Origin: an uncultured delta proteobacterium
GTDB lineage: Bacteria > Desulfobacterota > BSN033 > UBA1163
Length of the DNA: 64,000 bases
Assembly (NCBI GenBank): GCA_963827685.1
Contig: CAWHBU010000003.1
Location: 160,001-224,000, forward strand
Direction: 5' to 3'
This document shows positions 5,459 through 36,617 of the stretch, one piece after another (positions within the stretch are counted from its first letter, which is position 1; every line of letters starts with the position of its first letter). Made by a program: the position numbers and the translations under genes. The notes under the pieces were generated by a model, which saw only the letters and a program-made list of their open reading frames with translations, was not told the origin of the DNA and did no database searches.

Positions 5459-5842
5459 ATGAATGAAAAAAGTCATCAACTCGCAGACCGGCTGCTTGAT
5501 TTTGCAGTAAGTGTGATCAAGATTACTGATGCGTTGTCTCAAACAGTTGCTGGAAGACACATCGGAGGCCAACTCATCAGAGCAGGGACGTCCGGCGGAT
5601 CAAATTATGAGGAAGCTTGTGGGGCTGAATCAAGATCAGACTTTACTCATAAAATGAGTATCGTCCTGAAAGAGCTAAAGGAAACGCGTTTCTGGCTTCG
5701 ATTGATCCAACGTACTGGAATGCTTGAACCTCAATACACCGAGCCCGTAATAACCGAATGCGAACACCTATGTGCGATCACGGCGAAAAGCATTATCACC
5801 GCGAAGAAGAAGAACGAGTCTAAACTGCCGAGGAAAAACTAA
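5459..5842 (+). CDS. Four helix bundle protein (23S rRNA-IVP / bAvd-like family)
   Basis: LADRLLDFA, QLIRAGTSGGSNYEEACGAESRSDFTHKMSIVLKELKETRFWLRLI is the family signature. Confidence 0.93.
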   Translation: MNEKSHQLADRLLDFAVSVIKITDALSQTVAGRHIGGQLIRAGTSGGSNYEEACGAESRSDFTHKMSIVLKELKETRFWLRLIQRTGMLEPQYTEPVITECEHLCAITAKSIITAKKKNESKLPRKN

Positions 5843-26147: not shown

Positions 26148-26939
26148 ATGAACATTATCGTGTGTGTCAAGAGGGTCCCAGAAACAGCGGATGCGGACGT
26201 CATCATCGACAAATCAGGGAAAGACATTGAAAAGAGCGGATTGGTCTTCGATCTCAATGAGTGGGACAATTATGCCATTGAGGAAGCGATTCTGCTGAAG
26301 GAAAAAATGGGCGGAACCGTGACGGTAATCTCCATGGGAGGGGAAGAATCGAATGAATCCCTGCGGAAATGTCTGGCCATGGGCGCCGATGATGCCGTGC
26401 GGTTGACCGATCCTGCCTTCGCGGGATCGGATGGATTTGCTACGGCGAGGGTGTTGTCAGAGGCAGTCCGAAAAATTCCTCATGACCTTGTCTTCACAGG
26501 CGTACAGGCCGAAGATGATGGGTTTGGACAAGTGGGAGTTGCCTTGGCCGAAATCTTAGGGGTTCCTCATGTCTCTCTCGTCAACTCTCTCGAAGTCCAG
26601 GATAAGAAGCTGAAGGCCCACCGAGAACTGGAAGGGGGATTAGAGGAGGTGGTTGAAGTCGGCCTTCCCGCTGTCCTGACGATTCAAACTGGAATCAATC
26701 AACCCCGCTATGTCTCGATCATGGGTATTCGAAAGGTGGCTAAAAAAGAGATTAAGTCTTTAGGTGTCTCGGATCTCAATCTGAAGGCGGAAGAGGTTGG
26801 CCTTTCCGGCTCGCATATTAAGTTGGAAAAGATCTTTCTTCCTCCGGTGGGTGAGGGAGCACAGATGTTGCAGGGAAAACCGGAAGAGATAGCATCCAAG
26901 GTTTTCAATATTCTGAAGGACAAAGGAGGGCTCACCTAA
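26148..26939 (+). CDS. etfB: Electron transfer flavoprotein beta subunit
   Basis: IIVCVKRVP, LAMGAD and INQPRYVS. Confidence 0.93.
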   Translation: MNIIVCVKRVPETADADVIIDKSGKDIEKSGLVFDLNEWDNYAIEEAILLKEKMGGTVTVISMGGEESNESLRKCLAMGADDAVRLTDPAFAGSDGFATARVLSEAVRKIPHDLVFTGVQAEDDGFGQVGVALAEILGVPHVSLVNSLEVQDKKLKAHRELEGGLEEVVEVGLPAVLTIQTGINQPRYVSIMGIRKVAKKEIKSLGVSDLNLKAEEVGLSGSHIKLEKIFLPPVGEGAQMLQGKPEEIASKVFNILKDKGGLT

Positions 26940-27922
26940 TGAAGAAGATCATCGCCTTAGCAGAACATCGACAAGGAGAATTGCGAGATATAACATGGGA
27001 GGTTCTATCTAAAGGAAGACAATTAGCCGAGGGTATGGGTGCAGAGATCGAGGTCGCTCTTTTGGGCAAAGGTGTGAAGAAATTGGCAGAAGCCCTCAAA
27101 CCAAAAGCCAACAGGGTGCTTCTCATCGAAGATGACCGTCTTGAGGCCTTCAACTCAGAGACTTATCAGAAAGTCCTCACCCAACTGATCATAGAAAGGA
27201 AGCCATTTCTGACCCTGATCGGACACACGGCCATGGGAATGGATGTCGCTCCGGCATTAGCTGTTCAACTGAAGATGCCTATTGCCACAGACTGCATCGG
27301 GGTCGATGTGGCGGGAGAGACCTTTGCACTCACCCGTCAACTTTATGGAGGAAAGGTCAATGCAGCCGTTTCCTTCTTGAAGAGCGGGCCCTACATGATT
27401 ACCCTGCGGTCCGGTGGTTTTCCCGCAGTGGAAAAGGAACCTTTCCCAGGTGAAATCGTCACTGTTCCCTCTCCATTGACAGACGAAGGTCTGGCCAGAC
27501 GTTTTCTCCAGTATGTGGAGGCAGCAGTGGGTGAAGTGGATATCACCCAAGCCGATGTGTTGGTCTCCGTAGGAAGGGGAATTAAAGAAGCAGAGAATAT
27601 ACCGCTTGTAAAAGAGTTGGCCGATATGTTGGGAGCGGCGCTCTCCTGTTCCAGACCTGTTGTGGATAAGAAGTGGTTGCCTAAAGACCGTCAGGTAGGA
27701 ACTTCAGGCAAGACCGTGAAACCGAAGGTTTACATTGCCATTGGCATTAGTGGTGCTTTCCAGCATGTGGCAGGGATGAAAGGTGCGGGGACGGTGATCG
27801 CGATTAATAAAGATCCAAAAGCCCCTATCTTTGGTGTTGCCAACTATGGCATCGTGGCGGACTTGTTCAAGTTTGTTCCTGTTTTGAAAGAGAGGGTCAA
27901 AGAGCTCAAACAGAAAAGTTAA
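26939..27922 (+). CDS. etfA: Electron transfer flavoprotein alpha subunit
   Basis: LVSVGRG, CSRPVVD and [25 protein letters not shown]. Confidence 0.93.
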
Positions 27923-28033
27923 GAGTTCGCCTGCCTGCCGGTAGGCAGGGAGTTGGGAGTTCGGAGTCAAAACCTAACCACTACTAATTCTTCTAACGAT
28001 TTTCTCCGAACTCCGAACTAATCACTCCGAACT
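27917..28033 (+). repeat. Inverted AGTTCGG/CCGAACT array interrupted by the 20-nt palindrome
   Basis: agttaag agttcg[insert]g agttggg agttcgg ... ccgaact ccgaact aatcact ccgaact. Confidence 0.85.
27930..27949. mobile_element. 20-nt palindromic micro-insertion CCTGCCTGCCGGTAGGCAGG, copy 1
   Basis: Identical to 36126-36145. Removal restores the AGTTCGG unit. Confidence 0.75.
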
Positions 28034-28048
28034 GGGATAGGGTTAGGA

Positions 28049-29203
28049 ATGGATTTTGAATTGACAGGAGAGCAGAAGGACATTCAGAAGGCTGCCAGGG
28101 AGTTCGCCCAGGGGGAGTTCGACAAGGAGAAGATCCTGGAGTGGGAGCAAAACCATACCTTTCCCAAGGAACTCTGGAAGAAGGCCTGTAAATTGGGGTT
28201 CGTAGGCATTCACTTTCCCGAGGAATACGGGGGCCAGGGTTATGGGATCACTGAAAATATCCTGATCGTTGAAGAACTCTGTCGGAAAGACTCCGGAGTC
28301 GGTATTGCTTTAAGCCTTGTTGATTTCTCCTCTGAGGTGGTCCTCCGCTTCGGGACCCATGAACAGAAGAAGAAGTATCTCATTCCGGTCACCAAAGGAG
28401 AATTTATCTCTGCCGGCGCCTACACAGAACCTGACCACGGGAGTGATATCACCCTGATGGCTACCACAGCGTTGAAACAGGGTGATTCCTTCGTGATCAA
28501 TGGGACAAAGACATTCATCACCAATGGAACGCTTGCAGACTTCTTCGTTGTTCTCTGCCAGACCGATTCCAATGCAAAACCCTCTTACCGCGGTCAATGC
28601 ACCATTCTCGTTGAAAAAGGGACAAAGGGGCTGGAGGCTACGGAGATCGCGCCTAAGATGGGCATCCGGATGACATCGACGGTTGAGCTCTCCTTCAATG
28701 ATGTCAAAGTTCCTTTGACCCACCTTCTGGGTAAGGAAAATAAGGGGTTCTATCAAGTTCTTGAATTCTTCGATGAGAGCCGGATTGAGATCGCTGCCCA
28801 GGCCCTTGGCATTGCTCAGGGAGCCTTTGATCGGGCCCTGGACTATGCAAAACAGAGAGAACAGTTTGGAAAGAAACTGGCCGATTTTCAGATCACCCAA
28901 CACAAGTTAGCGGATATGGCAACCAAGATTGAGACAGCCAGGCTCCTTGTCTACAAGGCTGCCTGGAACTATGACCAGAAGAGGATCGATCCAAAACTGA
29001 CCTCCATGGCCAAGATGTTTTCCGCGAAGACAGCGGTAGAGGTCGCTGATGAGGCCATCCAGATTTTCGGAGGTTATGGCTACATCACTGAATACGAAGT
29101 AGAGCGTTTCTATCGGGATGCGAAGATCACAGAAATCTATGAGGGTACGAAAGAGATCCAGAAGAATACGATCGCCTCTGCCTTGATTGGGAAATTGAAC
29201 TAA
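28049..29203 (+). CDS. Acyl-CoA dehydrogenase
   Basis: YTEPDHGSD, NGTKTFITNG, QIFGGYGY and IYEGTKEIQ. Confidence 0.92.
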   Translation: MDFELTGEQKDIQKAAREFAQGEFDKEKILEWEQNHTFPKELWKKACKLGFVGIHFPEEYGGQGYGITENILIVEELCRKDSGVGIALSLVDFSSEVVLRFGTHEQKKKYLIPVTKGEFISAGAYTEPDHGSDITLMATTALKQGDSFVINGTKTFITNGTLADFFVVLCQTDSNAKPSYRGQCTILVEKGTKGLEATEIAPKMGIRMTSTVELSFNDVKVPLTHLLGKENKGFYQVLEFFDESRIEIAAQALGIAQGAFDRALDYAKQREQFGKKLADFQITQHKLADMATKIETARLLVYKAAWNYDQKRIDPKLTSMAKMFSAKTAVEVADEAIQIFGGYGYITEYEVERFYRDAKITEIYEGTKEIQKNTIASALIGKLN

Positions 29204-29207
29204 ATAG

Positions 29208-29287
29208 GGTGACTCGTGACGGGTGTTGGTGAATGTTAAAACCTCAAAAAGGGTTTCGAATCACGACTCACGAATCACGATTCACGG
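29208..29287 (+). repeat. Inverted CGTGAY/TCACGAA array
   Basis: gtgactcgtgacgggtgttggtgaat ... tcacgac tcacgaa tcacgat tcacgg. Confidence 0.8.
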
Positions 29288-29303
29288 AAAAGAAAGTACT
29301 ATT

Positions 29304-31562
29304 ATGAAGAGCGAAGAGATGAGAGAAGTCATTCCCGAAATCCTAGTCATCGGGGCCGGTATTGCAGGCATGCAAGCTGCTCTGGATATCGCCGACAAGG
29401 GGTTTAAGGTCCATTTAGTGGAGAAGGACACTTGCGTTGGGGGCCATATGGCCCAATTGGATAAGACCTTCCCCACCCTTGATTGCTCTGCCTGTATCAG
29501 CACGCCTAAAATGGTTGATACGGCGAATCATCCTAACATCAATCTTCTCACCTACTCAGAGATCGTTCGGGTTGAAGGAAAAGCTGGACATTTCAAGGTC
29601 ACGGTCAGAAAGAAACCCCGTTTTGTCGATGTAACCAAATGTACGGGTTGTGGTGACTGCGCCGCTCAATGCCCAGTCACCCTCCCCAACGAATTTGACA
29701 TGGGGTTAGGAAACAGGAAAGCAATCTATATCTCTTTCCCCCAGGCCGTTCCACTTAAATATACGATGGATCGCCGGGGGACTTCCCCCTGTACGGCTAC
29801 CTGCCCCCTCCACTGTAATGCCCAGGGCTATGTGGCCCTCATCTCCCAAGGCAAGTTTAAAGAAGCCCTTGAACTGGTGAGGGAGAAACTCCCCTTCCCG
29901 GGAATATTAGCCTATGCCTGTGCTCACCCCTGTGAAAGGGAGTGTAAGCGAATTGAAGAGGATCGTCCTATCTCCATCTGTCATCTCAAAAGGTTCCTCG
30001 TCGATCATGTTGAAGAACCTGAGTTTAAGTTTACGCCTCCCGAAGAAAAGGGAAAAAAGATAGCCATCGTGGGCGCAGGTCCGTCGGGACTCACCGCCGC
30101 ATATGATCTGAGAAAAATGGGTTACGGTGTCACCCTTTTTGAATCCAAAAATGAGTTAGGCGGTCTTCTCATCCACGGTTTCCCCTCCTATCGTCTTCCG
30201 AGGCAGGTGGTGGAAAAGGATCTCTCGGTGATCGATAAGATGGGAATAGAGGTCAAATGCAACACCCAGGTGGGAAAGGACATCTCCCCGGAGACACTCA
30301 CTCAATCCTATGATGCGATCTTTATCGCTGGTGGTATCACTGGAGTAGAATCCATCACGCGTGCCTTTAAGGGCCTAAAGAAAACGCGAAGAGGGACGAT
30401 TCAGGTCAATCCCATCTCCTTGGAAACCGCCGTGAAAGGGATCTTTGTGGGTGGAGATATGGTGACTGGTCCTGGGACCATTGTCGAATCCATGGCCCAG
30501 GGAAGGAAGGCTGCTGTTTCAATTGATCGATACCTTCGCGGAGAAGATCTGCTTCAAGGAAGGGAGTCCGAAGGAACACAAATCTCACCCTTAAGAAGCC
30601 TTCTTCCCTATTCGAAGAGAATGGAGCGAGAAGTCCTGCCCGATATGGTAAAACCACTCGTCGCCAGCATCACCGCAGAGGAGGCGATGGAGGAGGCAAA
30701 GCGTTGTCTCAATTGCGCAGGATGTTCGGATTGTGGAGAGTGTGCCAAGGCCTGTCAGCCCAAAGCCATCAATTATGGAATGAAAGAAGAGATCGTCGAA
30801 CTTCATGTGGGATCCATCATCCTCGCAACCGGTTTCGATCCCTTCAACCCGAAACTGAAACCCGAATTTGGATATGGCAAGTATCCCAACGTCCTTCATG
30901 GTCTTGAAATAGAGAGGCTCTGTTCTGCCTCTGGTCCAACCCAAGGTGAAATTATCATCCAGGGAAAGAAGCCCAAAGAGGTGATCTTTATTCACTGCGT
31001 TGGGTCGAGGGATAAGGCAGCGGGCAACGAATACTGCTCAAGGGTCTGCTGTATGTATACGGCTAAGCAAGCCCATCTCCTCAGGGATAAGATTCCGGAT
31101 GCCAATATCACCGTCCTCTATATGGATGTGAGGGCCTTTGGAAAAGGATTTGAAGAATTTTACGAGAGGGTCCAAAAAGAGAGGATCGTCTACAGAAGGG
31201 GAAATCCCTCTGAGGTTTATCGAAGAAACGGGAAACTGGTGGTCAGGGGCGAGGATACCCTCTTAGGAGAACCTTTTGAATTAGAAGCAGACCTGGTCGT
31301 CCTGGCCTCAGGACTCGTCCCCCGAAAGGAGGATAATCTTCTAAAAGACCTTCTCAAGTTGGAGAAATCCTCTGACCAATTTTATGCAGAGGCTCCAGGC
31401 CTCGATCCAATTGTAACGGGTGTGGATGGGATCTTCCTGGCAGGTTGTTGCCAGGGGCCCAAAGATATTCCGGACACAGTGGCACAGGCCAGTGGTGCAG
31501 CTTCAATGGCCTGCGCCTTTGTAGCGAAAGGAAGAGAAACAAAAGTTAAGAGTTCAGAGTGA
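29304..31562 (+). CDS. hdrA: HdrA-like flavoprotein with a truncated GltD-like insertion (HdrL-type), lacking HdrA N- and C-terminal Fe-S domains
   Basis: GAGIAG, DKTFPTLDCSAC, a ferredoxin split by a Fer4_20/GAGPSG insert, CVGSRD..CSRVCC and GCCQGPKDI. Confidence 0.88.
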   Translation: MKSEEMREVIPEILVIGAGIAGMQAALDIADKGFKVHLVEKDTCVGGHMAQLDKTFPTLDCSACISTPKMVDTANHPNINLLTYSEIVRVEGKAGHFKVTVRKKPRFVDVTKCTGCGDCAAQCPVTLPNEFDMGLGNRKAIYISFPQAVPLKYTMDRRGTSPCTATCPLHCNAQGYVALISQGKFKEALELVREKLPFPGILAYACAHPCERECKRIEEDRPISICHLKRFLVDHVEEPEFKFTPPEEKGKKIAIVGAGPSGLTAAYDLRKMGYGVTLFESKNELGGLLIHGFPSYRLPRQVVEKDLSVIDKMGIEVKCNTQVGKDISPETLTQSYDAIFIAGGITGVESITRAFKGLKKTRRGTIQVNPISLETAVKGIFVGGDMVTGPGTIVESMAQGRKAAVSIDRYLRGEDLLQGRESEGTQISPLRSLLPYSKRMEREVLPDMVKPLVASITAEEAMEEAKRCLNCAGCSDCGECAKACQPKAINYGMKEEIVELHVGSIILATGFDPFNPKLKPEFGYGKYPNVLHGLEIERLCSASGPTQGEIIIQGKKPKEVIFIHCVGSRDKAAGNEYCSRVCCMYTAKQAHLLRDKIPDANITVLYMDVRAFGKGFEEFYERVQKERIVYRRGNPSEVYRRNGKLVVRGEDTLLGEPFELEADLVVLASGLVPRKEDNLLKDLLKLEKSSDQFYAEAPGLDPIVTGVDGIFLAGCCQGPKDIPDTVAQASGAASMACAFVAKGRETKVKSSE

Positions 31563-31644
31563 TGAGTTAAGAGTTTAGAGTTATGAATGATGAGTTATAA
31601 ATCAATTATTTCACGAGTCACGAATCACGAGGCACGAATCACGG
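31544..31644 (+). repeat. Chimeric array: AGTTAAG/AGTTATG left arm plus TCACGAA right arm
   Basis: agttaag agttcag agtgatg agttaag agtttag agttatg ... tcacgag tcacgaa tcacgag gcacgaa tcacgg. The arms are not complementary. Confidence 0.8.
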
Positions 31645-31651
31645 AGAAAAG

Positions 31652-33586
31652 ATGAAGATCGGCGTCTATATCTGTCATTGTGGGATCAACATTGCGGCGA
31701 CAGTAGATATCGAAAAGGTGAGGACATTTGCTCAGACCCTCCCCCATGTCGAAGTCGCCCGAAATTATCAGTATATGTGCTCGGATCCTGGCCAGGATTT
31801 GATTAAGAATGATATCAGAAACAATGGCATTGATCGGGTGGTGGTAGCGGCTTGCTCTCCTCGGATGCACGAACCCACTTACCGTAAGGCTGTCCAGTCG
31901 GCAGGACTCAATCCCTACTTTTTTGAAATGTCCAACATCCGTGAACAGTGCTCCTGGGTTCATACGAACAGAGAGGATGCTACGAAAAAGGCGATGGATC
32001 TGATTGCCGCCGCCGTTGCCAAAGTCTCCCTTCACGAAGCCTTAGATGAAAAGGAAGTGGGAGTCACTCCTTCTGTGTTAGTCATTGGTGGCGGCATTGC
32101 CGGAATTCAGGCCAGCCTCGATATCGCCCATTCAGGCTTTGAAGTCTATCTGGTAGAAAAATCGCCCACCCTGGGAGGCCATCTCGCGCAACTGGATCGA
32201 ACCTTCCCCAATCTGGAGGAGACCTCGACCATCCTCTCTCCGAAACTGAAAGAGGTTGGAAACCACCCCCTCATCCACATTCTCACCCAGAGTGAAGCAG
32301 AAGAGGTGGAAGGATTTGTGGGCAATTTTAAGGTTAGGGTAAGGCAGAATCCCAGATATATCAATCCAGAAAAATGCACCCGATGCAAAAAATGTGAAGA
32401 CGTCTGTCCGGTTAAGGTTCCGAGTGAATTCAATATGGGACTGGCCGAGAGAAAAGCGATCTATCTCCCCTCCCCTCTTGCTGTCCCTTTCACCTACACC
32501 ATCGATCCGCAAAACTGTCTCTTCCTTCAAAAGGGGGAGTGTGGAAAGTGCCGGGAGATTTGCCCGGAGGGAGCGGTTGAGTTTGAACAGGTAGGGGTTG
32601 AATACCAGTTCGATATAGGGACGATCATCGTGGCCACGGGTTATGACCCCTTCGATCCCAGACTAAAACCTGAGTTTGGATATGGGCTTTATAAAAATGT
32701 GGTGACCGGACTTGAGTTTGAAAGGTTGCTCTCTGGAAGTGGGCCCACTCAAGGGAAAATTGAGATCAACAGCAAGGAGCCGAAAAATATCGTATTCATC
32801 CAATGCGTTGGGTCGAGAGATAAAACGGTGGGCAATGAATATTGCTCCAGAGTCTGTTGTATGTTTACAGCCAAACAGGCCTCTCTCGTCAAGGATCGAA
32901 TTCCTGATGCCCGGGTCACTATTTGCTATATCGATATAAGAGCTTTTGGAAAAGGATATGAACAGTTCTATGATGAAGTACAGAGAAAAGGAGTTCTCTA
33001 CAGAAAAGGAGTTCCATCCGAGATTTATCAAAGATCCGGAAAATTGATCGTCAAGGCGGATGACGAACTCTTGGGGGAACCCTATGAGGAAGAGGCAGAC
33101 CTGGTTGTCTTGGCCACAGGCCTCACGCAGCGAAATGACGCAAATCGCGTTCGGAGCCTTCTTAAACTTTCCCAAAGTCCGGATCGTTTCTATTTGGAAG
33201 CCCATCCCAAGATGAGGCCTCTTGACACAGCCACGGATGGGATCTTTTTGGCTGGAACCTGCCAAGGGCCAAAAGATATTTCCGATACCCTATCACAAGC
33301 CCATGGAACAGCTTCTCGGGCAACCATTCCCCTCTTTGCAGGAAGAGTCAAGATCGAGCCGATCACATCGGTGGTGGACGTCTCCTTCTGTGCTGGCTGC
33401 GGTCTCTGTGAACAGGTCTGTGAATTTCGGGCTCTGAAACTCGACCCTTATCGAAAGGTCATGACAGTTAACGAAGCCCTCTGTAAGGGATGCGGAGCCT
33501 GTAATGCCACTTGCCCCTCAGGTGCCATCAGTCTGAGGCACTTCAAGACCGAACAGATCATCGCCGAAATCAAAGAAGTCTGTTAA
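31652..33586 (+). CDS. hdrA: Heterodisulfide reductase subunit A-like protein (full length)
   Basis: KIGVYICHCGINI, YMCS, AACSP, NIREQCSW, GGGIAG, CVGSRD..CSRVCC and C-terminal 2x4Fe-4S. Confidence 0.93.
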   Translation: MKIGVYICHCGINIAATVDIEKVRTFAQTLPHVEVARNYQYMCSDPGQDLIKNDIRNNGIDRVVVAACSPRMHEPTYRKAVQSAGLNPYFFEMSNIREQCSWVHTNREDATKKAMDLIAAAVAKVSLHEALDEKEVGVTPSVLVIGGGIAGIQASLDIAHSGFEVYLVEKSPTLGGHLAQLDRTFPNLEETSTILSPKLKEVGNHPLIHILTQSEAEEVEGFVGNFKVRVRQNPRYINPEKCTRCKKCEDVCPVKVPSEFNMGLAERKAIYLPSPLAVPFTYTIDPQNCLFLQKGECGKCREICPEGAVEFEQVGVEYQFDIGTIIVATGYDPFDPRLKPEFGYGLYKNVVTGLEFERLLSGSGPTQGKIEINSKEPKNIVFIQCVGSRDKTVGNEYCSRVCCMFTAKQASLVKDRIPDARVTICYIDIRAFGKGYEQFYDEVQRKGVLYRKGVPSEIYQRSGKLIVKADDELLGEPYEEEADLVVLATGLTQRNDANRVRSLLKLSQSPDRFYLEAHPKMRPLDTATDGIFLAGTCQGPKDISDTLSQAHGTASRATIPLFAGRVKIEPITSVVDVSFCAGCGLCEQVCEFRALKLDPYRKVMTVNEALCKGCGACNATCPSGAISLRHFKTEQIIAEIKEVC

Positions 33587-33592
33587 TTGCGC

Positions 33593-33667
33593 ATTTCGGA
33601 TTGCGGATTGCGGAATTTAGAGATTGATAACTGACCATTGTTGATTGACCATTTTGCATTGAGTTTT
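33593..33667 (+). repeat. Chimeric array: ATTGCGG left arm plus TTGACCA/TTTTGCA right arm
   Basis: atttcgg attgcgg attgcgg ... ttgataa ctgacca ttgttga ttgacca ttttgca ttgagtt. Confidence 0.7.
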
Positions 33668-33671
33668 TCCT

Positions 33672-34196
33672 ATGGAAAAGGGTCTCATTCAGATCTATAC
33701 CGGGAATGGAAAAGGTAAGACCACTGCTGCTTTGGGGCTTGCCCTGAGAGCGGTCGGCCATGGATTGAAGGTCTTGGTCATCCAATTCATGAAAGGAAAT
33801 ATCGACTACGGTGAATTGGAATCTTCTAAAAAGCTCTCTCCCTACTTGACGATCAAACAGATGGGCAGGGAGACTTTTGTCTCAAAAACGAACCCAGATC
33901 CCATTGACGTAAGAATGGCTCAGGATGGATTTGTTTTGGCGAAAAAAGCGATTGCCGATGAAGACTATGACATCATCATCCTCGACGAAATCAATGTGGC
34001 CATCGATTACGGATTGATCCCTCTCTCTGATCTCCTTCACGTCCTTGAAACCAAGCCCAGCGGAGTTGAACTCATTCTAACCGGAAGAAACGCCCGACCT
34101 GAAATATTGGAAAAAGCTGATTTGGTCACGGAGATGGTAGAACAAAAACACTACTATAAGAACGGAGTCTCAGCTCGCAAAGGCTTCGAAATTTAA
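33672..34196 (+). CDS. cobO: Cob(I)alamin adenosyltransferase (CobO/BtuR)
   Basis: YTGNGKGKTTAALG, QFMKG, ILDEI, ELILTGR and DLVTEM. Confidence 0.94.
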   Translation: MEKGLIQIYTGNGKGKTTAALGLALRAVGHGLKVLVIQFMKGNIDYGELESSKKLSPYLTIKQMGRETFVSKTNPDPIDVRMAQDGFVLAKKAIADEDYDIIILDEINVAIDYGLIPLSDLLHVLETKPSGVELILTGRNARPEILEKADLVTEMVEQKHYYKNGVSARKGFEI

Positions 34197-34243
34197 CCCC
34201 CCTTCATCCCCCCTTAACCTAAGGGGGGAATAGAGGGGGGTTA
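34194..34243. repeat. C-rich/G-rich REP-like hairpin
   Basis: taacccccc ttcat cccccctta acc taagggggg aataga ggggggtta. Related to 43134-43175. Confidence 0.75.
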
Positions 34244-34277
34244 CAAATCACGGACACGAGACTAGGGGGCTTACTGA

Positions 34278-35951
34278 ATGTTCAAAGAAGACAAATTGAA
34301 AAGGGTCAAAGAGGAGAAGAAAAGGTGGACAGAGGATTTGTCGAAAAGTCTCTGCGAGACCCCTGAACGTCTCCCGCGGTTTTCCACTGTCTCCGATCTT
34401 GAGATCAAGGGTCTCTATACTCCGGAAGATATCAAAGACATCGACTATTCCAGAGACATTGGTTTCCCAGGTATCTATCCTTTCACCCGAGGAGTTCAAC
34501 CCTCCATGTATCGGGGAAGGCTCTGGACCATGCGAATGTTTTCGGGCTTGGGAGGACCGGAGGAGACAAACAAGCGTTTCCATTATCTGTTGGCTCATGG
34601 GGAAACCGGTCTTTCCATCGCCTTTCATTATCCTACGCTCATGGGCTATGACAGTGACGCTCCGATGTCGAAAGGTGAAATTGGGAAGTGCGGTGTGGCG
34701 GTTGACACGCTCAAAGATATGGAAATTCTCTTTGAAGGGATACCCCTGGATAAGGTCACCACCTCCATGACCATCAACCCCCCTGCTTCCATCCTGCTGG
34801 CCATGTATATGGTTGTGGCCGAGAAGCAAGGGATCAGCAAGAAGCAAATTGGAGGGACCATCCAGAATGACATGCTGAAAGAATTCATTGCTCAGAAAAC
34901 CTTCATGCTTCCTCCCAAACCCTCTCTCCGGATCATCGTAGATACCGTTGAATACTGCACCAAAGAAGTCCCCCGTTGGAATACGATCAGTATTAGTGGC
35001 TATCATATTCGTGAAGCCGGGGCAACAGCCGTTCAAGAGCTTGCCTTCACCCTGGCCGATGGGATTGCCTATGTTGAGGCAGCGATGGAAAGAGGGCTCA
35101 ATGTAGATGATTTTGCTCCGAGGCTTTCCTTCTTTTTCGATTCCCATATCGACTTCTTCGAGGAAATCGCTAAGTTTCGGGCGGCTCGAAGGATATGGGC
35201 GAAAATCATGCGTGAGCGTTTCACTGCAAAAAATCCACACTCTTGGCTGCTCCGTTTCCACACTCAAACCGCTGGCTGTTCTTTGACAGCGCAACAACCT
35301 TATAACAATGTCATCCGCACTGCCTATGAAGCATTGGCTGCCGTACTGGGTGGAACCAATTCCCTCCACACCAATTCTCTCGACAAGACCTATGCGATCC
35401 CTACGGAGGAAGCGGCCACCATCGCCTTACGGACACAACAGATTCTCGCAGAGGAAACCGGGGTGGCCAACACCATCGATCCGTTGGCAGGCTCTTATTT
35501 TGTGGAGGCGTTGACCCAAAACATTGAGGAACAGGCTTACGAATATATCCGAAGAATCGATGAAATGGGAGGAATGGTGGCAGCCATTGAAAGAGGGTAT
35601 CCCCAATCTGAAATCGCTGATTCCGCTTATAAGTTCCAGCGTCAAGTTGACTCAGGAGAAAAGACCATTGTCGGTGTCAATAAGTATGCGACAGAGCATT
35701 CCCCCATTACGATCTGGAGGATGAAACCGGAGATCGAAGAAAGACAATTGAGACGGCTGCGTGAGGTGAAGGAGAGACGAGACAATCAAAAAGTAAGAGA
35801 ACTCCTCCAAAGAATTCGGAAGGTGTCTCAAAGTAGCGAAAACCTCATGCCTCACATTATCAATGCGGTGAGGGAATATGCCACGCTCCAGGAGATCTGT
35901 GATGTGTGGAGAGATGTCTTTGGCCGATATTCAGATCCGGGATACTTCTAA
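34278..35951 (+). CDS. icmA: Acyl-CoA mutase large (substrate-binding) subunit, isobutyryl-CoA mutase-like
   Basis: MCM fold ([20 protein letters not shown]) with Phe in WTMRMFSG and Gln in KEFIAQK at the MCM Tyr/Arg specificity positions. Confidence 0.75.
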
Positions 35952-36017
35952 GGACATAGCGTCCGATCGCCAAAGTACTTATACAGCAGGCAGGCGTCGA
36001 GGATAGAACATACATGG

Positions 36018-36166
36018 AAGCACCAAATCCCAAGCACCAAATCTCAAATAAATCCCAATTACCAAAATTCGAAAAAAATCTATTTGGTTATTTGAAATTG
36101 GAATTTGGAGCTTATTTGGGATTTGCCTGCCTGCCGGTAGGCAGGGAATTTGTGATTTGGGATTTT
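36018..36166 (+). repeat. Inverted CCAAAT/ATTTGG array interrupted by the 20-nt palindrome
   Basis: caccaaa tcccaag caccaaa tctcaaa ... atttggg atttg[insert]ga atttgtg atttggg. Confidence 0.85.
36126..36145. mobile_element. 20-nt palindromic micro-insertion CCTGCCTGCCGGTAGGCAGG, copy 2
   Basis: Identical to 27930-27949. Removal restores the ATTTGGA unit. Confidence 0.75.
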
Positions 36167-36209
36167 AGAGAGCCTACTCTTTGCGGCCTACTGAAGGCGA
36201 GGAGCGATA

Positions 36210-36617
36210 ATGAGTCTCAAGAGAAAAGTTCGCATTCTGATAGGGAAACCCGGCTTGGATGGACATGATCGGGGAGCAAAAGTGATCGCAAGGGGGTTCA
36301 GGGACGCCGGTTTTGAGGTGATCTATACAGGACTCCATCAGACGCCCGAGCAGATCGTGTCGGCTGCCATCCAGGAAGATGTGGATGCAATCGGATTATC
36401 CAGCCTGGCCGGGGCCCATGACTATCTTTTCCCGAGGGTGATTGAACTTCTCAAAGAAAAAAAGGCAGACGATATTATCGTTTTTGGAGGGGGAATTGTT
36501 CCTGAAGAGGACATCGCTACCCTCACCCAATGTGGGGTAAAAGCCATCTTCACTCCCGGGACCTCTATTGAAGAGGCCGTTAAGTGGGTTCGTAAAAACG
36601 TAAAGCCGCGTAAATAA
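36210..36617 (+). CDS. icmB: Acyl-CoA mutase cobalamin-binding small subunit
   Basis: [10 protein letters not shown] (DxHxxG), GLSSLAGAH and GGGIVP. Confidence 0.85.

Follow-up and report, generated by a model that had tools for sequence, protein, structure and literature searches.

A 20-nt hairpin element inserted precisely into other short repeats of an uncultured delta proteobacterium and found beside a small GIY-YIG nuclease gene in other phyla

Introduction

REPs are lineage-specific, non-autonomous repeats that have a GTAG-like 5' head and are driven in trans, and the SDR of Nostocaceae are reportedly about 21-27 nt in size and present or absent at orthologous sites. In the parts of the literature drawn on here, SDR (including the 21-nt SDR5) are described as dispersed repeats of ~20 nt that are reported in Nostocaceae only, with SDR5 inserted between bases 3 and 4 of HIP1, GCG^ATCGC (PMC5861425, PMC4390886, PMC13756078, PMC2884548, PMC3116915). 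For REP and REPIN, the cited portion of Bertels and Rainey (2011, PMC3116915) describes many short extragenic palindromes and a single-copy RAYT (Y1) gene bordered by its own repeats. A further system is formed by the Ssn nucleases, 94-aa GIY-YIG proteins that are specific for single-stranded DNA and strand-specific, and whose genes have hairpin repeats of their own (NTS/SRM) on their flanks; the sections of that report cited here also give a search pattern for SRM, HGTCWYN(0-2)YYVSBRHN(0-5)WNVSBRGN(0-2)RNCYNB (Chenal et al. 2025, PMC11893778).

Here, we describe a 20-mer, CCTGCCTGCCGGTAGGCAGG (EL), in a 64,000-nt stretch of DNA (the window) from an uncultured delta proteobacterium. An earlier note on this DNA had proposed that EL is a non-autonomous mobile hairpin moved in trans by an enzyme, with an HUH/Y1-type enzyme as one candidate. 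The evidence reported below, including the occurrence of EL beside a small nuclease gene in other genomes, suggests a different candidate.

Results and Discussion

Two identical copies in 7-mer-armed hairpins

EL occurs with 0 mismatches at two places in the window, both on the plus strand and in two different 7-mer families, exactly as had been claimed; the chance expectation is 0.00 (100 dinucleotide-preserving shuffles). Further matches in the window fall only at the same two places, on the minus strand and with 2 mismatches, because EL is a near-palindrome. Both copies are intergenic and lie within 7-mer arrays, each of which makes up one arm of a long inverted repeat. The features are:

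27930..27949, plus strand: EL copy 1, T13 form, a G^G insertion in a G-rich 7-mer arm
36126..36145, plus strand: EL copy 2, T13 form, a G^G insertion in a GGGATTT-type arm
27917..28033, no strand assigned: host element 1, a 7-mer-armed hairpin between ORFs 26939-27922 and 28049-29203
36023..36165, no strand assigned: host element 2, a 7-mer-armed hairpin between ORFs 34278-35951 and 36210-36617
35986..35995, plus strand: GCAGGCAGGC, a word that resembles half of EL and is complementary to the left arm of EL copy 2 (inverted pair)

Host element 1 consists of a GAGTTSG arm (27917-27967) and a CTCCGAA arm (28004-28033) around a centre without repeats, and its inverted-repeat arms at 27951-27966 and 28004-28019 are 94% complementary; site 1 reads GAGTTCG[EL]GAGTTGGGAGTTCGGAGT. 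Host element 2, which has many paralogs across the genome and the genus, pairs an AAATCCC-type arm (36023-36066) with a GGGATTT-type arm (36082-36165), with 79% complementarity between 36038-36065 and 36098-36125; site 2 reads GGGATTTG[EL]GAATTTGTGATTTGGGATTT. As DNA, EL is predicted to fold into a hairpin (-7.0 kcal/mol, z -2.9) whose 8-bp stem has a G.T closing pair and bears a CCGG loop, and in the predicted folds of both host hairpins it forms a side branch (-24.5 kcal/mol, z -4.8, and -30.7 kcal/mol, z -5.7, respectively). To judge by its letters, the word GCAGGCAGGC at 35986..35995 may be a decayed EL copy.

Precise insertion without target duplication

At both window sites, the host repeat is regained when exactly 20 nt are taken out, and the claim that insertion leaves no target duplication is borne out by orthologous and gap-free paralogous empty sites. 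For site 1, the same-genus genome G011 has host element 1 without EL at the orthologous position, and the paralogous copy C2:587884-587915 is empty (30/32 identical, no gap); for site 2, the paralog at C4:462834-462882 is empty (48/49 identical, no gap) and the one at C2:1204150 has EL in the identical place. The suggested search for empty alleles was successful at site 1 in G011, and no precise one was seen in the contigs of 4 public runs. Genome-wide, 51 of the 99 EL sites have gap-free empty paralogs, including 32 of the 50 exact copies. REP loops have EL at the same TT^TAY spot in 10 of 50 cases, and at the GTGCCCCTT^GACCCC spot of the largest family 12 copies are filled vs 50 that are empty. 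EL is a discrete 20-nt unit whose presence or absence is precise, without target duplication, and which was inserted after the arrays had formed, as the note had proposed; its lack of autonomy in this genome is likewise supported, and copies and empty sites are numerous. EL does not show the terminal inverted repeats plus target-site duplication of a classical MITE, as its empty sites align without gap or duplicated bases.

At 20 nt, EL shows the precise insertion into other short repeats and the orthologous presence/absence that characterize an SDR. Like SDR as described in the cited sources, EL is ~20 nt, dispersed, and placed at a fixed point in another short repeat, after G as in SDR5. In this comparison by description, EL differs from SDR, which those sources place in Nostocaceae only, in that it occurs in many phyla, with 0 of 123 records cyanobacterial among the matches listed, and has a linked candidate gene.

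Copy number, target rule and self-nesting

The genome-wide count that had been called for yielded 99 EL sites, 50 of them exact, in 77 flank clusters. EL targets unpaired spots of other hairpin repeats (loops, including REP loops), 7-mer arrays and its own loop, so that the earlier suggestion of a preference for these stem arms is right in that 7-mer arrays are used and too narrow given the many types of hairpin repeat and the own loop. EL is mostly placed between two Gs, as proposed, with G^G flanks at 40 of 76 copies in this genome, at 48 of the 121 sites from other genomes, and at 85 of 124 nested copies among the matches listed. At the 121 sites in other genomes, the base at -1 is G in 81, A in 31, C in 7 and T in 2, and the base at +1 is G in 68, T in 29, C in 17 and A in 7; neither distribution is the mirror image of the other. 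The strand of EL is fixed relative to its target, with a purine before and G after. The three observations that the earlier note had named as contrary to its reading (only two copies in existence, EL always present at the orthologous sites of relatives, flanks without a G^G rule) were not what we found.

Self-insertion at CCG^G is seen in this genome at C1:16287, and the self-nested 40-mer was found in at least 122 stretches, with triple nesting in 8 of 124 occurrences among the matches listed; the nested form is (CCTGCCTGCCG)n(GTAGGCAGG)n. The right-arm runs, (GTAGGCAGG)n, are one-sided and look like slippage growth. Variants of EL recur as well: the CCTGCCCGCC variant is found in 3 contexts in G020, and a 19-nt form is found at 13 sites that represent at least 9 contexts. 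Because such variant subfamilies return in unrelated contexts, copies beget copies.

Distribution across bacteria

The identical 20-mer is present in at least 123 stretches from many phyla, where it is often amplified, and no flank homology is shared among the 123 foreign EL loci in the matches listed. Closer to the genome studied, EL is present in 14 of 14 genus genomes and 21 of 24 family genomes, and it was found in none of 17 further families from the class or phylum; phylum-wide, it was found in 13 of 201 genomes. Viral contigs have it as well (14 stretches of 11 contigs). Amplification is seen in Olivibacter (at least 26 exact copies in Olivibacter oleidegradans), in one Stahlbacteria MAG and in one Bacteroidales MAG (at least 100 exact copies). 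Exact copies dominate within each genome, and the consensus is letter-perfect in distant phyla; the same EL sequence is amplified independently in distant phyla.

These data bear on the possibility that no dedicated enzyme is involved and that stalled replication at hairpins followed by a template switch to a different hairpin-bearing copy, or short-patch gene conversion among repeats, copies the palindrome by microhomology. The targets, which are hairpin loops and slippage-prone 7-mer arrays, would suit such a process, as would the one-sided right-arm runs and the finding that no gene is associated with EL inside this genome, and the flanking Gs of most copies could supply 1 nt of microhomology. 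We nevertheless regard it as distinctly unlikely, since insertions are exactly 20 nt even at places without G microhomology (ATT^TAT and ATA^AAT in REP loops), microhomology of a near-palindrome cannot set an orientation that is strongly target-dependent, and a letter-perfect consensus across phyla with dominant exact copies needs sequence-specific recognition.

Y1 transposases and REPs

IS200/IS605 elements move without target duplication, have hairpins and insert in a strand-fixed manner beside a short target word. The hairpin, the strand-fixed insertion and the lack of target duplication of EL resemble this chemistry, and this genome has 25 Y1_Tnp matches, so that movement in trans by a single-strand transposase (IS200/IS605 TnpA or RAYT) deserves attention. 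The HUH/Y1 candidate of the earlier note nevertheless found no backing and is very unlikely, as EL flanks not one of the 25 Y1_Tnp matches. The 545-bp IS200-like element, present in 18 identical copies, has CCGCCCAGCTCTGCTGGGCGG and CCCCGCAGCTCTGCTGCGGGG as its ends, which differ from EL; the RAYT-like gene at C6:428228-428560 has REPs of the GTAGCGTCGGCA... family on its flanks, and EL only invades these; and the 7 other Y1 genes have no EL within 1.2 kb. Olivibacter oleidegradans, in turn, had 0 Y1_Tnp matches among 8 candidates scored, and EL shows no replication-strand bias by GC skew (32 vs 29). As a single 20-nt hairpin that differs from the resident IS200-like ends, EL does not look like an IS200/IS605-derived miniature.

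Like REP and REPIN, EL is a short extragenic palindrome with many copies, has a gene that it flanks, and would be a non-autonomous repeat moved in trans. Unlike REP, it is identical across phyla, has no GTAG head and no fixed head in its flanks, and no Y1 gene is linked to it; the REP/RAYT pair of this genome has a different sequence, and EL inserts in its REP loops.

A cassette with a small GIY-YIG nuclease gene

Across phyla, EL is a regular part of a cassette in which it lies 13-92 nt upstream of a gene for a single-domain GIY-YIG protein of ~80-100 aa, on the strand of that gene. The hairpin is located in the 5' part of a tRNA gene that has been duplicated, and the intact tRNA follows directly downstream. 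A first cross-phylum scan was biased by one search peptide that was encoded by 'GGATA' plus the hairpin. A hairpin-blind scan, seeded by a peptide pattern unrelated to the hairpin, gave 80 small GIY-YIG loci across phyla, 40 of which have EL (<=2 mismatches) 13-92 nt upstream; derivative hairpins occupy its place in ~20 of the other 40, as read by eye, and 75 of the 80 loci are tRNA-linked. A search within the family, using an 80-aa query without any hairpin-encoded part, found EL upstream of 3 of the 3 closest homologs (49-51% identity) and of 0 of 17 more distant ones. EL ends 14 nt before the ATG at loci L466 and L467 and 63 nt before the match start at L465. All 9 orientable T13 copies at cassettes are on the strand of the gene, hairpin variants differ from cassette to cassette, and one Stahlbacteria MAG has EL on both sides of the GIY-YIG gene. 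Flavobacterium xinjiangense has only 2 EL copies genome-wide, and both are at the cassette. Deleting EL from the pseudo-tRNA restores the tRNA sequence (GGATA^GAGC), and at L467 one pseudo-tRNA holds two ELs. Gene-less remnants of cassettes are found near tRNA genes, and of the 5 other EL sites in two low-copy genomes, 3 are near tRNA genes without a GIY-YIG gene.

Could the 20-mers instead be scars or abutted ends of larger CCTGCC...GGCAGG-ended elements, or a selected protein-binding or regulatory motif, and not be mobile in their own right? Longer elements that share the outer arms of EL do exist (43-47, 130, 247 and 728 nt), and the gene-less remnants near tRNA genes would fit. Against this, length-20 pairs number 81 vs 1-6 for each longer form, the longer forms are explained by other hairpins inserted in the EL loop, and cassettes are tRNA-linked while solo ELs are found in REP loops, in 7-mer arrays and within the loop of EL itself. 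A transcriptional role is unsupported, as copies show no bias in orientation relative to flanking genes (19, 16, 9, 8) and have no T-run behind the hairpin. Taken together, we consider this reading highly improbable.

The EL-linked proteins have the subfamily motifs HNSGKTKSTKGYRPW / REKYxKSGxGKE; their PDB relatives are UPF0213 proteins, SLX1 and I-TevI, and the only NCBIfam match is a weak one to TIGR01453 in 6 of 15 members. Aligned with the SRM-flanked GIY-YIG protein of this genome, the family alignment (A1) gave an HHalign probability of 98% at 33% identity. As far as the cited sections on NTS/SRM go (PMC11893778), EL resembles these repeats in being a short, directional hairpin that is present tens to hundreds of times, almost always between genes, in its wide and patchy distribution over phyla, and in lying beside, at times on both sides of, a ~80-100-aa single-domain GIY-YIG gene that encodes a homolog of Ssn. 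It differs in that it has no 5' GTCAT box, the linked protein belongs to a different subfamily, and the cassette resides at tRNA genes, where the 5' part of the tRNA is duplicated; precise insertion, empty sites and self-nesting are not given for NTS/SRM in those sections. The SRM pattern matched 0 of 99 EL sites (±15 nt, both strands), and there are 34 other matches in this genome. Judged from these sequence comparisons, the EL-linked nucleases are related to the Ssn nucleases, and the link of EL to a nuclease is new.

Is the nuclease the driver?

A small single-domain GIY-YIG gene flanked by the repeat was found in other genomes and not in this genome (G000) or its genus, so that the earlier suggestion of a transposase or nuclease gene with the same hairpin holds for the former and fails at the GIY-YIG loci of the genus (EL at 0 of 16 loci from 13 of 15 genomes, with no match in G005 and G008). 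A close homolog of the EL-linked nuclease is absent from this genome, where the best match reaches 45% identity and lacks an adjacent hairpin. Olivibacter gave 0 matches to A1 despite its many exact copies, the EL-rich Bacteroidales MAG has an A1-type gene but without the hairpin, and G016, G022, G051 and G058 have homologs of the nuclease family in genomes almost free of the 20-mer. We infer that this genome keeps only a decayed cassette, with a remnant upstream of tRNA-Asn; the window copies would therefore be relics of earlier activity or have been moved by a more distant paralog (C3:1158142-1158369).

EL might also be mobile through some other factor, with the GIY-YIG gene not its driver and the duplicated, dead tRNA half acting as a tolerant hairpin-loop target; that half, if a favoured target, could explain the adjacency to the gene. 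The pseudo-tRNA site (GGATA^GAGC) resembles any other EL insertion, a single pseudo-tRNA can hold two ELs, tRNA-near sites occur without the gene, and this genome, its genus and Olivibacter are EL-rich without an EL-linked gene. We think this unlikely, since occupancy at cassettes (40/80, or ~60/80 with derivatives) far exceeds that of REP loops or of the largest family, the only two ELs of one genome are both at the cassette, EL orientation there follows the gene, and variation from cassette to cassette is expected if hairpin and gene travel together.

The explanation that we favor, to which we would give an even chance as a whole, is that EL is a non-autonomous insertion element of very small size that has spread via cuts made by the linked GIY-YIG nuclease family. 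By analogy with Ssn nucleases and their NTS/SRM hairpins, the nuclease family would bind EL as single-stranded DNA and cut beside the hairpin; after the nuclease has cut exposed loops, host repair or ligation would copy EL to new sites, and the dispersed 20-mers would be the solo, gene-less form of the cassette hairpin. Because a hydrolytic GIY-YIG nuclease cannot ligate, the insertion step is purely one that we infer. The EL-linked nuclease is a candidate enzyme for such very small mobile repeats. In a broader and doubtful reading, a hydrolytic single-strand nuclease and its 20-nt recognition hairpin would form a two-part selfish system with "homing of a binding site" via loop cuts, repeated insertion into the own loop would be one route by which bacterial arm-repeat hairpins are built, and 7-mer-armed spacer elements may share this origin.

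EL sits in 7-mer arms both in the window and in other phyla. Unlike 7-mer-armed hairpin insertions, it is a 20-nt unit without an arm-repeat cassette. Genes for PF05635 ("23S rRNA intervening sequence" protein) show no excess of adjacency to EL (2 of 18 within 2 kb vs an estimated ~1.4 expected); they are present in 6 of 6 EL-rich genomes looked at, and also in the EL-free relatives G016 and G017.

Precise insertion of EL

EL, the 20-nt near-palindromic hairpin element CCTGCCTGCCGGTAGGCAGG, is present without mismatch at both places in the window where the earlier note had reported it, and the chance expectation for an exact copy in the window is none. The two sites are as follows.

27930-27949, + strand: EL site 1, in the spacer between the same-strand ORFs 26939-27922 and 28049-29203
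36126-36145, + strand: EL site 2, in the spacer between the same-strand ORFs 34278-35951 and 36210-36617

Each spacer is a long hairpin with arms made of 7-mer arrays (GAGTTSG/CTCCGAA at site 1 and AAATCCC/GGGATTT at site 2), and in folds of both host hairpins EL forms a side branch off the G-rich arm. Folded as single-stranded DNA, EL yields an 8-bp stem with a CCGG loop and a G.T closing pair (-7.0 kcal/mol); the opposite strand folds more weakly (7-bp stem, 6-nt loop, -6.1 kcal/mol). Rfam covered neither EL site, and 27500-36600 gave two chance-level matches under the gathering score. Both spacers (27923-28048 and 35952-36209) are hypervariable in the genus (loci L153-L165 and L173-L185); between flanking genes that are 74-94% identical, nearly each of 13-14 relatives carries a different hairpin element, including other 7-mer units, CCCTCCCC/GGGGAGGG hairpins, and hairpins resembling SRM, the repeats of Ssn nucleases.

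EL is an exact 20-nt insertion for which empty sites exist. In G000, the genome of the window (5.23 Mb in 14 contigs, named C1, C2, etc.; 94.5% complete, 8% contamination), EL occurs in 50 exact copies (24 on the + and 26 on the - strand) and at 99 sites with up to three mismatches, the most frequent variant, which has C at position 13 (C13), being a perfect palindrome. The window corresponds to C3:160001-224000 of this assembly. When EL was removed and the joined flanks were searched by BLAST against G000 (with minima of 12 nt per side and 88% identity), a gap-free paralog across the junction was found for 51 of the 99 sites, and for 32 of the 50 exact copies. The best empty paralogs of the window sites are located as follows.

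C2:587884-587915: best empty paralog of site 1
C4:462834-462882: best empty paralog of site 2

An empty allele, which the earlier note had proposed to look for, also exists in a related genome; in G011, from the same genus, the orthologous spacer contains the GAGTTSG hairpin minus exactly 20 nt (...gttaggagctcg^gagttgggagttcgg..., as compared to ...gttaagagttcg-EL-gagttgggagttcgg... in G000). Consistent with the claim of insertion without target duplication, duplicated bases were found at none of the EL junctions. The site 2 array was absent from all 13 genus relatives examined, each of which has another hairpin element there; a G000 paralog of site 2 (C2:1204150) carries EL at the equivalent place, and composite elements are therefore also copied whole. 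Contigs of four public read runs yielded no precise 20-nt empty allele, a result of little weight since contigs drop rare variants; the filled allele was present in contig sets X1 and X2, and very different 77-78-nt spacers were present in X1, X2, and X3.

Target choice and strand

By their flanks, the 99 G000 sites fall into 77 sequence clusters, and 85 of them are intergenic on a crude ORF map, in a genome that is 83% coding. Targets include the following.

G-rich hairpins, in the apical loop: CCCTCTCCCCTTG^GGGGAGAGGG
REPs of a family with its own RAYT-like gene, in the loop: GTCGGCATT^TATTGCCGAC; EL in 10 of 50 REP copies
A nested hairpin family, at an unpaired internal position: GTGCCCCTT^GACCCCGCC; 12 copies with EL, 50 without
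Several 7-mer arrays
EL itself, in its loop, at C1:16287: CCTGCCTGCG-EL-GTAGGCAGG

The proposed rule that EL inserts between two Gs described 40 of 76 G000 junctions; position -2 was a pyrimidine at 62 and position +2 a purine at 73 of the 76. At 121 usable sites of other genomes, the -1 base was G, A, C, and T at 81, 31, 7, and 2 sites, respectively, and the +1 base was G, T, C, and A at 68, 29, 17, and 7 sites, respectively. These distributions are not mirror images; the near-palindromic EL thus keeps a fixed strand with respect to its target, a sign of a strand-specific process. EL orientation showed no bias with regard to flanking genes (19, 16, 9, and 8) or GC skew (32 vs 29).

Longer G000 elements at C3:155730 (130 nt), C3:809741 (44 nt), and C3:992669 (47 nt) have the outer arms CCTGCCTGC...GCAGGCAGG in common with EL and differ in their inner hairpins; the inner parts of such elements are, e.g., CGAAGCCGCTTCGGCG or 27 nt that separate C10 from G11 of EL. 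The EL loop in turn receives other small inserts.

Spread across phyla

EL follows a target rule, nests within itself, has spread as subfamilies, and is both identical and amplified across phyla. A self-nested 40-mer (EL within EL at CCG^G) was found in at least 122 stretches across phyla; among 124 occurrences, 85 were again G^G and eight were triple-nested. A 19-nt form with one C missing occupies 13 sites in at least nine different contexts, a variant starting CCTGCCCGCC in the relative G020 occurs in three unrelated contexts, and seven of the eight copies of a CCTTCC... variant in the relative G019 are passengers in one larger repeat; these contexts indicate two modes of spread, i.e., of EL itself and as a passenger in larger repeats.

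With up to one mismatch, EL was found in all 14 genus genomes and in 21 of 24 family genomes, and in none of 17 genomes from other families of the class or phylum in a first sample; across the phylum, 13 of 201 genomes carried it, with only one to four matches outside the family of G000. Exact EL occurs in at least 123 stretches of a species-genome collection, and the labels among the listed matches include Bacteroidota, many Patescibacteria groups, Omnitrophota, Ignavibacteriota, Planctomycetota, Chloroflexota, Nitrospirota, Acidobacteriota, and others; the listed cross-phylum stretches showed no similarity outside EL. EL is amplified in distant genomes: the isolate Olivibacter oleidegradans CCM 7765 carries at least 26 exact copies, a 1.3-Mb Stahlbacteria MAG gives approximately 105 matches per strand (up to two mismatches), and a Bacteroidales MAG (G061) has 100 exact copies or more. 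Predicted viral contigs contributed 14 stretches on 11 contigs.

Several local arrangements were also observed. Thermoflavifilum thermophilum DSM 14807 has at least 13 copies (up to one mismatch; nine exact) within 32 kb (C2:1200428-1232703 of that genome, G260), mostly of the palindromic form, and about seven more elsewhere. In G061, many copies form inverted pairs 115-360 nt apart (e.g., C28:91304(+)/91419(-) and C32:8786(+)/8941(-) of that genome), as expected if an EL-bearing hairpin arm were mirrored onto the other arm. Loci L267 and L279 contain several repeats of just the right arm (GTAGGCAGG GCAGGCAGG ...), and these one-sided runs look like array growth by slippage. At L241, from a Saccharibacteria MAG, a nested 40-mer lies inside a tRNA-like stretch (GGGCATATAGCTCAGTTGGTTA^GAGCGC...), in which ARAGORN detected no tRNA with the insert kept or removed.

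Candidate movers

The suggestion that a Y1/HUH-type enzyme moves EL in trans did not hold; EL was found at none of the G000 Y1 genes, and EL-rich Olivibacter gave no match to Y1_Tnp. Among 25 Y1_Tnp matches in G000, 18 are identical copies in a compact 545-bp IS200-like element (e.g., C4:636157-636519, locus L124) with end hairpins (CCGCCCAGCTCTGCTGGGCGG and CCCCGCAGCTCTGCTGCGGGG) that are unrelated to EL, and a diverged RAYT-like Y1 gene (C6:428228-428560, - strand) lies between copies of the GTAG-headed REP GTAGCGTCGGCATTTAYTGCCGACG...GGGCGCTAC, a family of about 50 copies with EL in the loop of ten. No EL was present within 1.2 kb of seven other Y1 genes. Reverse transcriptases were rejected as RVT_1 was not found in three of five EL-bearing genomes, including both genomes with about 100 copies or more, even if MAGs may be incomplete. 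Genes matching PF05635 ("23S rRNA intervening sequence protein", a four-helix bundle) were rejected as well, since they occur in all EL-rich genomes examined but also in EL-free relatives; G000 has 18 such matches, one of them in the window (5486-5779, + strand, i.e., G000:C3:165486-165779; E 2.6e-15).

The ORFs located up to 1.5 kb from the 99 G000 sites (310 with a length of 100 aa or more, a cut-off that small GIY-YIG genes would escape) included no recurrent family beyond mixed-length clusters of seven. The multi-copy proteins of G000 (20 of 25 families scanned) gave no lead to a mover; these 20 represented 14 ordinary transposases (DDE/integrase-type, one IS110), two tyrosine integrases, one thiolase, and three families without a Pfam match.

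A GIY-YIG gene linked to EL at tRNA genes

A strong physical link exists between EL and one GIY-YIG family at tRNA genes. A nuclease gene flanked by the same hairpin, which the earlier note had suggested looking for, was found in the Stahlbacteria MAG, where exact EL copies stand on both sides of a 98-aa GIY-YIG ORF and on the strand of the ORF; the upstream copy lies 24 nt from the ATG, and the other lies at the 3' end of the ORF, within the D-loop of a tRNA-like copy. A first scan for relatives of this protein found EL in 78 of 80 loci, within 150 nt upstream in 63, and was biased in that the search peptide GYLPAGRQ is encoded by 'GGATA' plus EL; the link was thus retested twice without this bias. 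In the family of G000 (31 genomes, searched with an 80-aa query minus the EL-encoded tail), the three closest homologs (G043, G053, and G023; 49-51% identity) all had EL upstream on the gene's strand, ending 14 nt before the ATG by sequence in G053 and G023, and 63 nt before the match start in G043; none of 17 more distant homologs had EL. Across phyla, A1, an alignment of 15 N-terminal domains of GIY-YIG proteins, was searched through the pattern EK[YQ][LYW]K[SGA]GxG[KR], and EL (up to two mismatches) was found 13-92 nt upstream in 40 of the best 80 loci. By our reading of the sequences upstream, EL derivatives occupy the equivalent place at about 20 of the remaining 40 loci (the 19-nt form, EL with an insert in its loop, or diverged spellings). 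For comparison, EL would be expected by chance within 150 nt upstream of a given gene in an estimated 0.3% or so of cases in a 100-copy genome; the genome of Flavobacterium xinjiangense has two EL copies, both at the cassette.

A tRNA gene lies within about 1 kb at 75 of 80 loci, most commonly Arg-CCT (16) and Leu-CAA (12). The cassette usually starts with the tRNA 5' part as far as the D-loop; EL follows, then the adjoining tRNA bases as far as the anticodon loop, then the ORF, and finally the intact tRNA. Sphingobacterium lumbrici, for example, has two tandem cassettes ahead of tRNA-Arg (...GTTCAACGGATA-EL-GAATAG...ATG), and in the family of G000 ...CAACCGGTAGTAGCG-EL-GGTGGCTGTTAACCATG... 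precedes tRNA-Asn. In two sets, the cassette form of EL was C13 in 76 cases and T13 (T at position 13) in nine; solo EL in G000 is mostly T13 (50 exact T13 vs 15 C13 among 76 copies with up to one mismatch). All nine orientable T13 copies at cassettes are on the gene's strand. Within the tRNA copy, EL again follows a purine^G rule and sits in a hairpin loop, and its adjacency to the gene might instead reflect a target preference for the dead tRNA half. If the GIY-YIG protein is involved in insertion, it would recognise EL as single-stranded DNA, and insertion would result from nuclease cuts and host repair. Counting against nuclease-driven insertion, Olivibacter is rich in exact EL and has no A1 match, the EL-richest relatives are without the EL-linked gene, and homologs are present in genomes almost without EL; in addition, a hydrolytic nuclease does not ligate.

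Neither G000 nor any of the 15 genus genomes yielded a close homolog of the EL-linked subfamily (best match 45% identical). Immediately upstream of tRNA-Asn (C3:717122), C3:716960-717121 contains a decayed tRNA-Asn 5' copy with two degenerate hairpin inserts, which continues ...GCAGCAGCG and then CCAGGCAGG, with no ORF and a GGTTATT/GGGATTT 7-mer array thereafter; we read this stretch as the wreck of the left part of a GIY-YIG cassette. Given this decayed cassette and the lack of a close homolog, the best reading of the window copies is that they are solo elements and that their lineage has lost the cassette. EL may instead be moved in G000 by a more distant GIY-YIG paralog; EL was present at none of 16 GIY-YIG loci taken from genus genomes, and the G000 gene nearest to A1 is as follows.

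C3:1158142-1158369: 79-aa GIY-YIG gene, HHalign probability 99.5%

Directly upstream of this gene, C3:1158370-1159100 (locus L361, 1708-2420) consists of about ten tandem 63-nt units (agccgacgaagctttgataaaagcgcagttggccgccaaggcttcggttggcaagccatcctattt), open in two frames on the strand of the gene.

Relation to other small repeats

Very small dispersed repeats such as the SDRs of cyanobacteria and the dRS3/NTS of Neisseria are long known; to our knowledge, no study has demonstrated how a unit of about 20 nt becomes inserted. EL provides clean insertion footprints, in which exactly 20 nt are present or absent, nothing is duplicated, the target rule is tied to one strand, and EL nests within itself. 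It is also amplified letter for letter in distant phyla, cultured non-pathogenic isolates included, and is physically tied to a tiny candidate enzyme family; together, these features make the question testable on one oligonucleotide and a protein of 80-100 aa. If the link is true, it would add to the Ssn-type toolbox of sequence-specific ssDNA nucleases and account for some of the hairpins and repeats that clutter bacterial spacers, and the tRNA-lodged nuclease cassettes would be a class that has so far gone unnoticed.

No published text was found that contains EL, its C13 form, its reverse complement, or its RNA spelling, and no description of the cassette was found in the literature; the original SDR paper and the supplements of PMC11893778, which may bear on this, were outside the scope. 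According to the passages covered (PMC5861425, PMC4390886, PMC13756078, PMC2884548, PMC3116915), the SDRs of Nostocaceae are 21-nt units of unknown function, inserted at a fixed point of HIP1; EL behaves alike but differs in occurring outside cyanobacteria and across phyla. In the part of PMC11893778 covered, SsnA is a 94-aa single-domain GIY-YIG protein that binds the NTS/SRM hairpin only as ssDNA and on one strand only, cuts a few bases upstream of the hairpin, and is typically encoded by a repeat-flanked gene. As far as that part goes, EL resembles NTS/SRM in its gene link and differs by its hairpin, its protein subfamily, its tRNA-lodged cassette, and the direct evidence of insertion; none of the 99 EL sites match the SRM pattern as published there.

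The SRM pattern has 34 matches in G000. A likely Ssn/SRM pair is also present in this genome, i.e., a 97-aa GIY-YIG gene at C5:121252-121476 (- strand; locus L360) flanked by SRM/NTS-like hairpins, with GTCATTCCCGCAGAAGCGGGAATCCAG upstream and an inverted ATTCCTGC...GCAGGAAT downstream.
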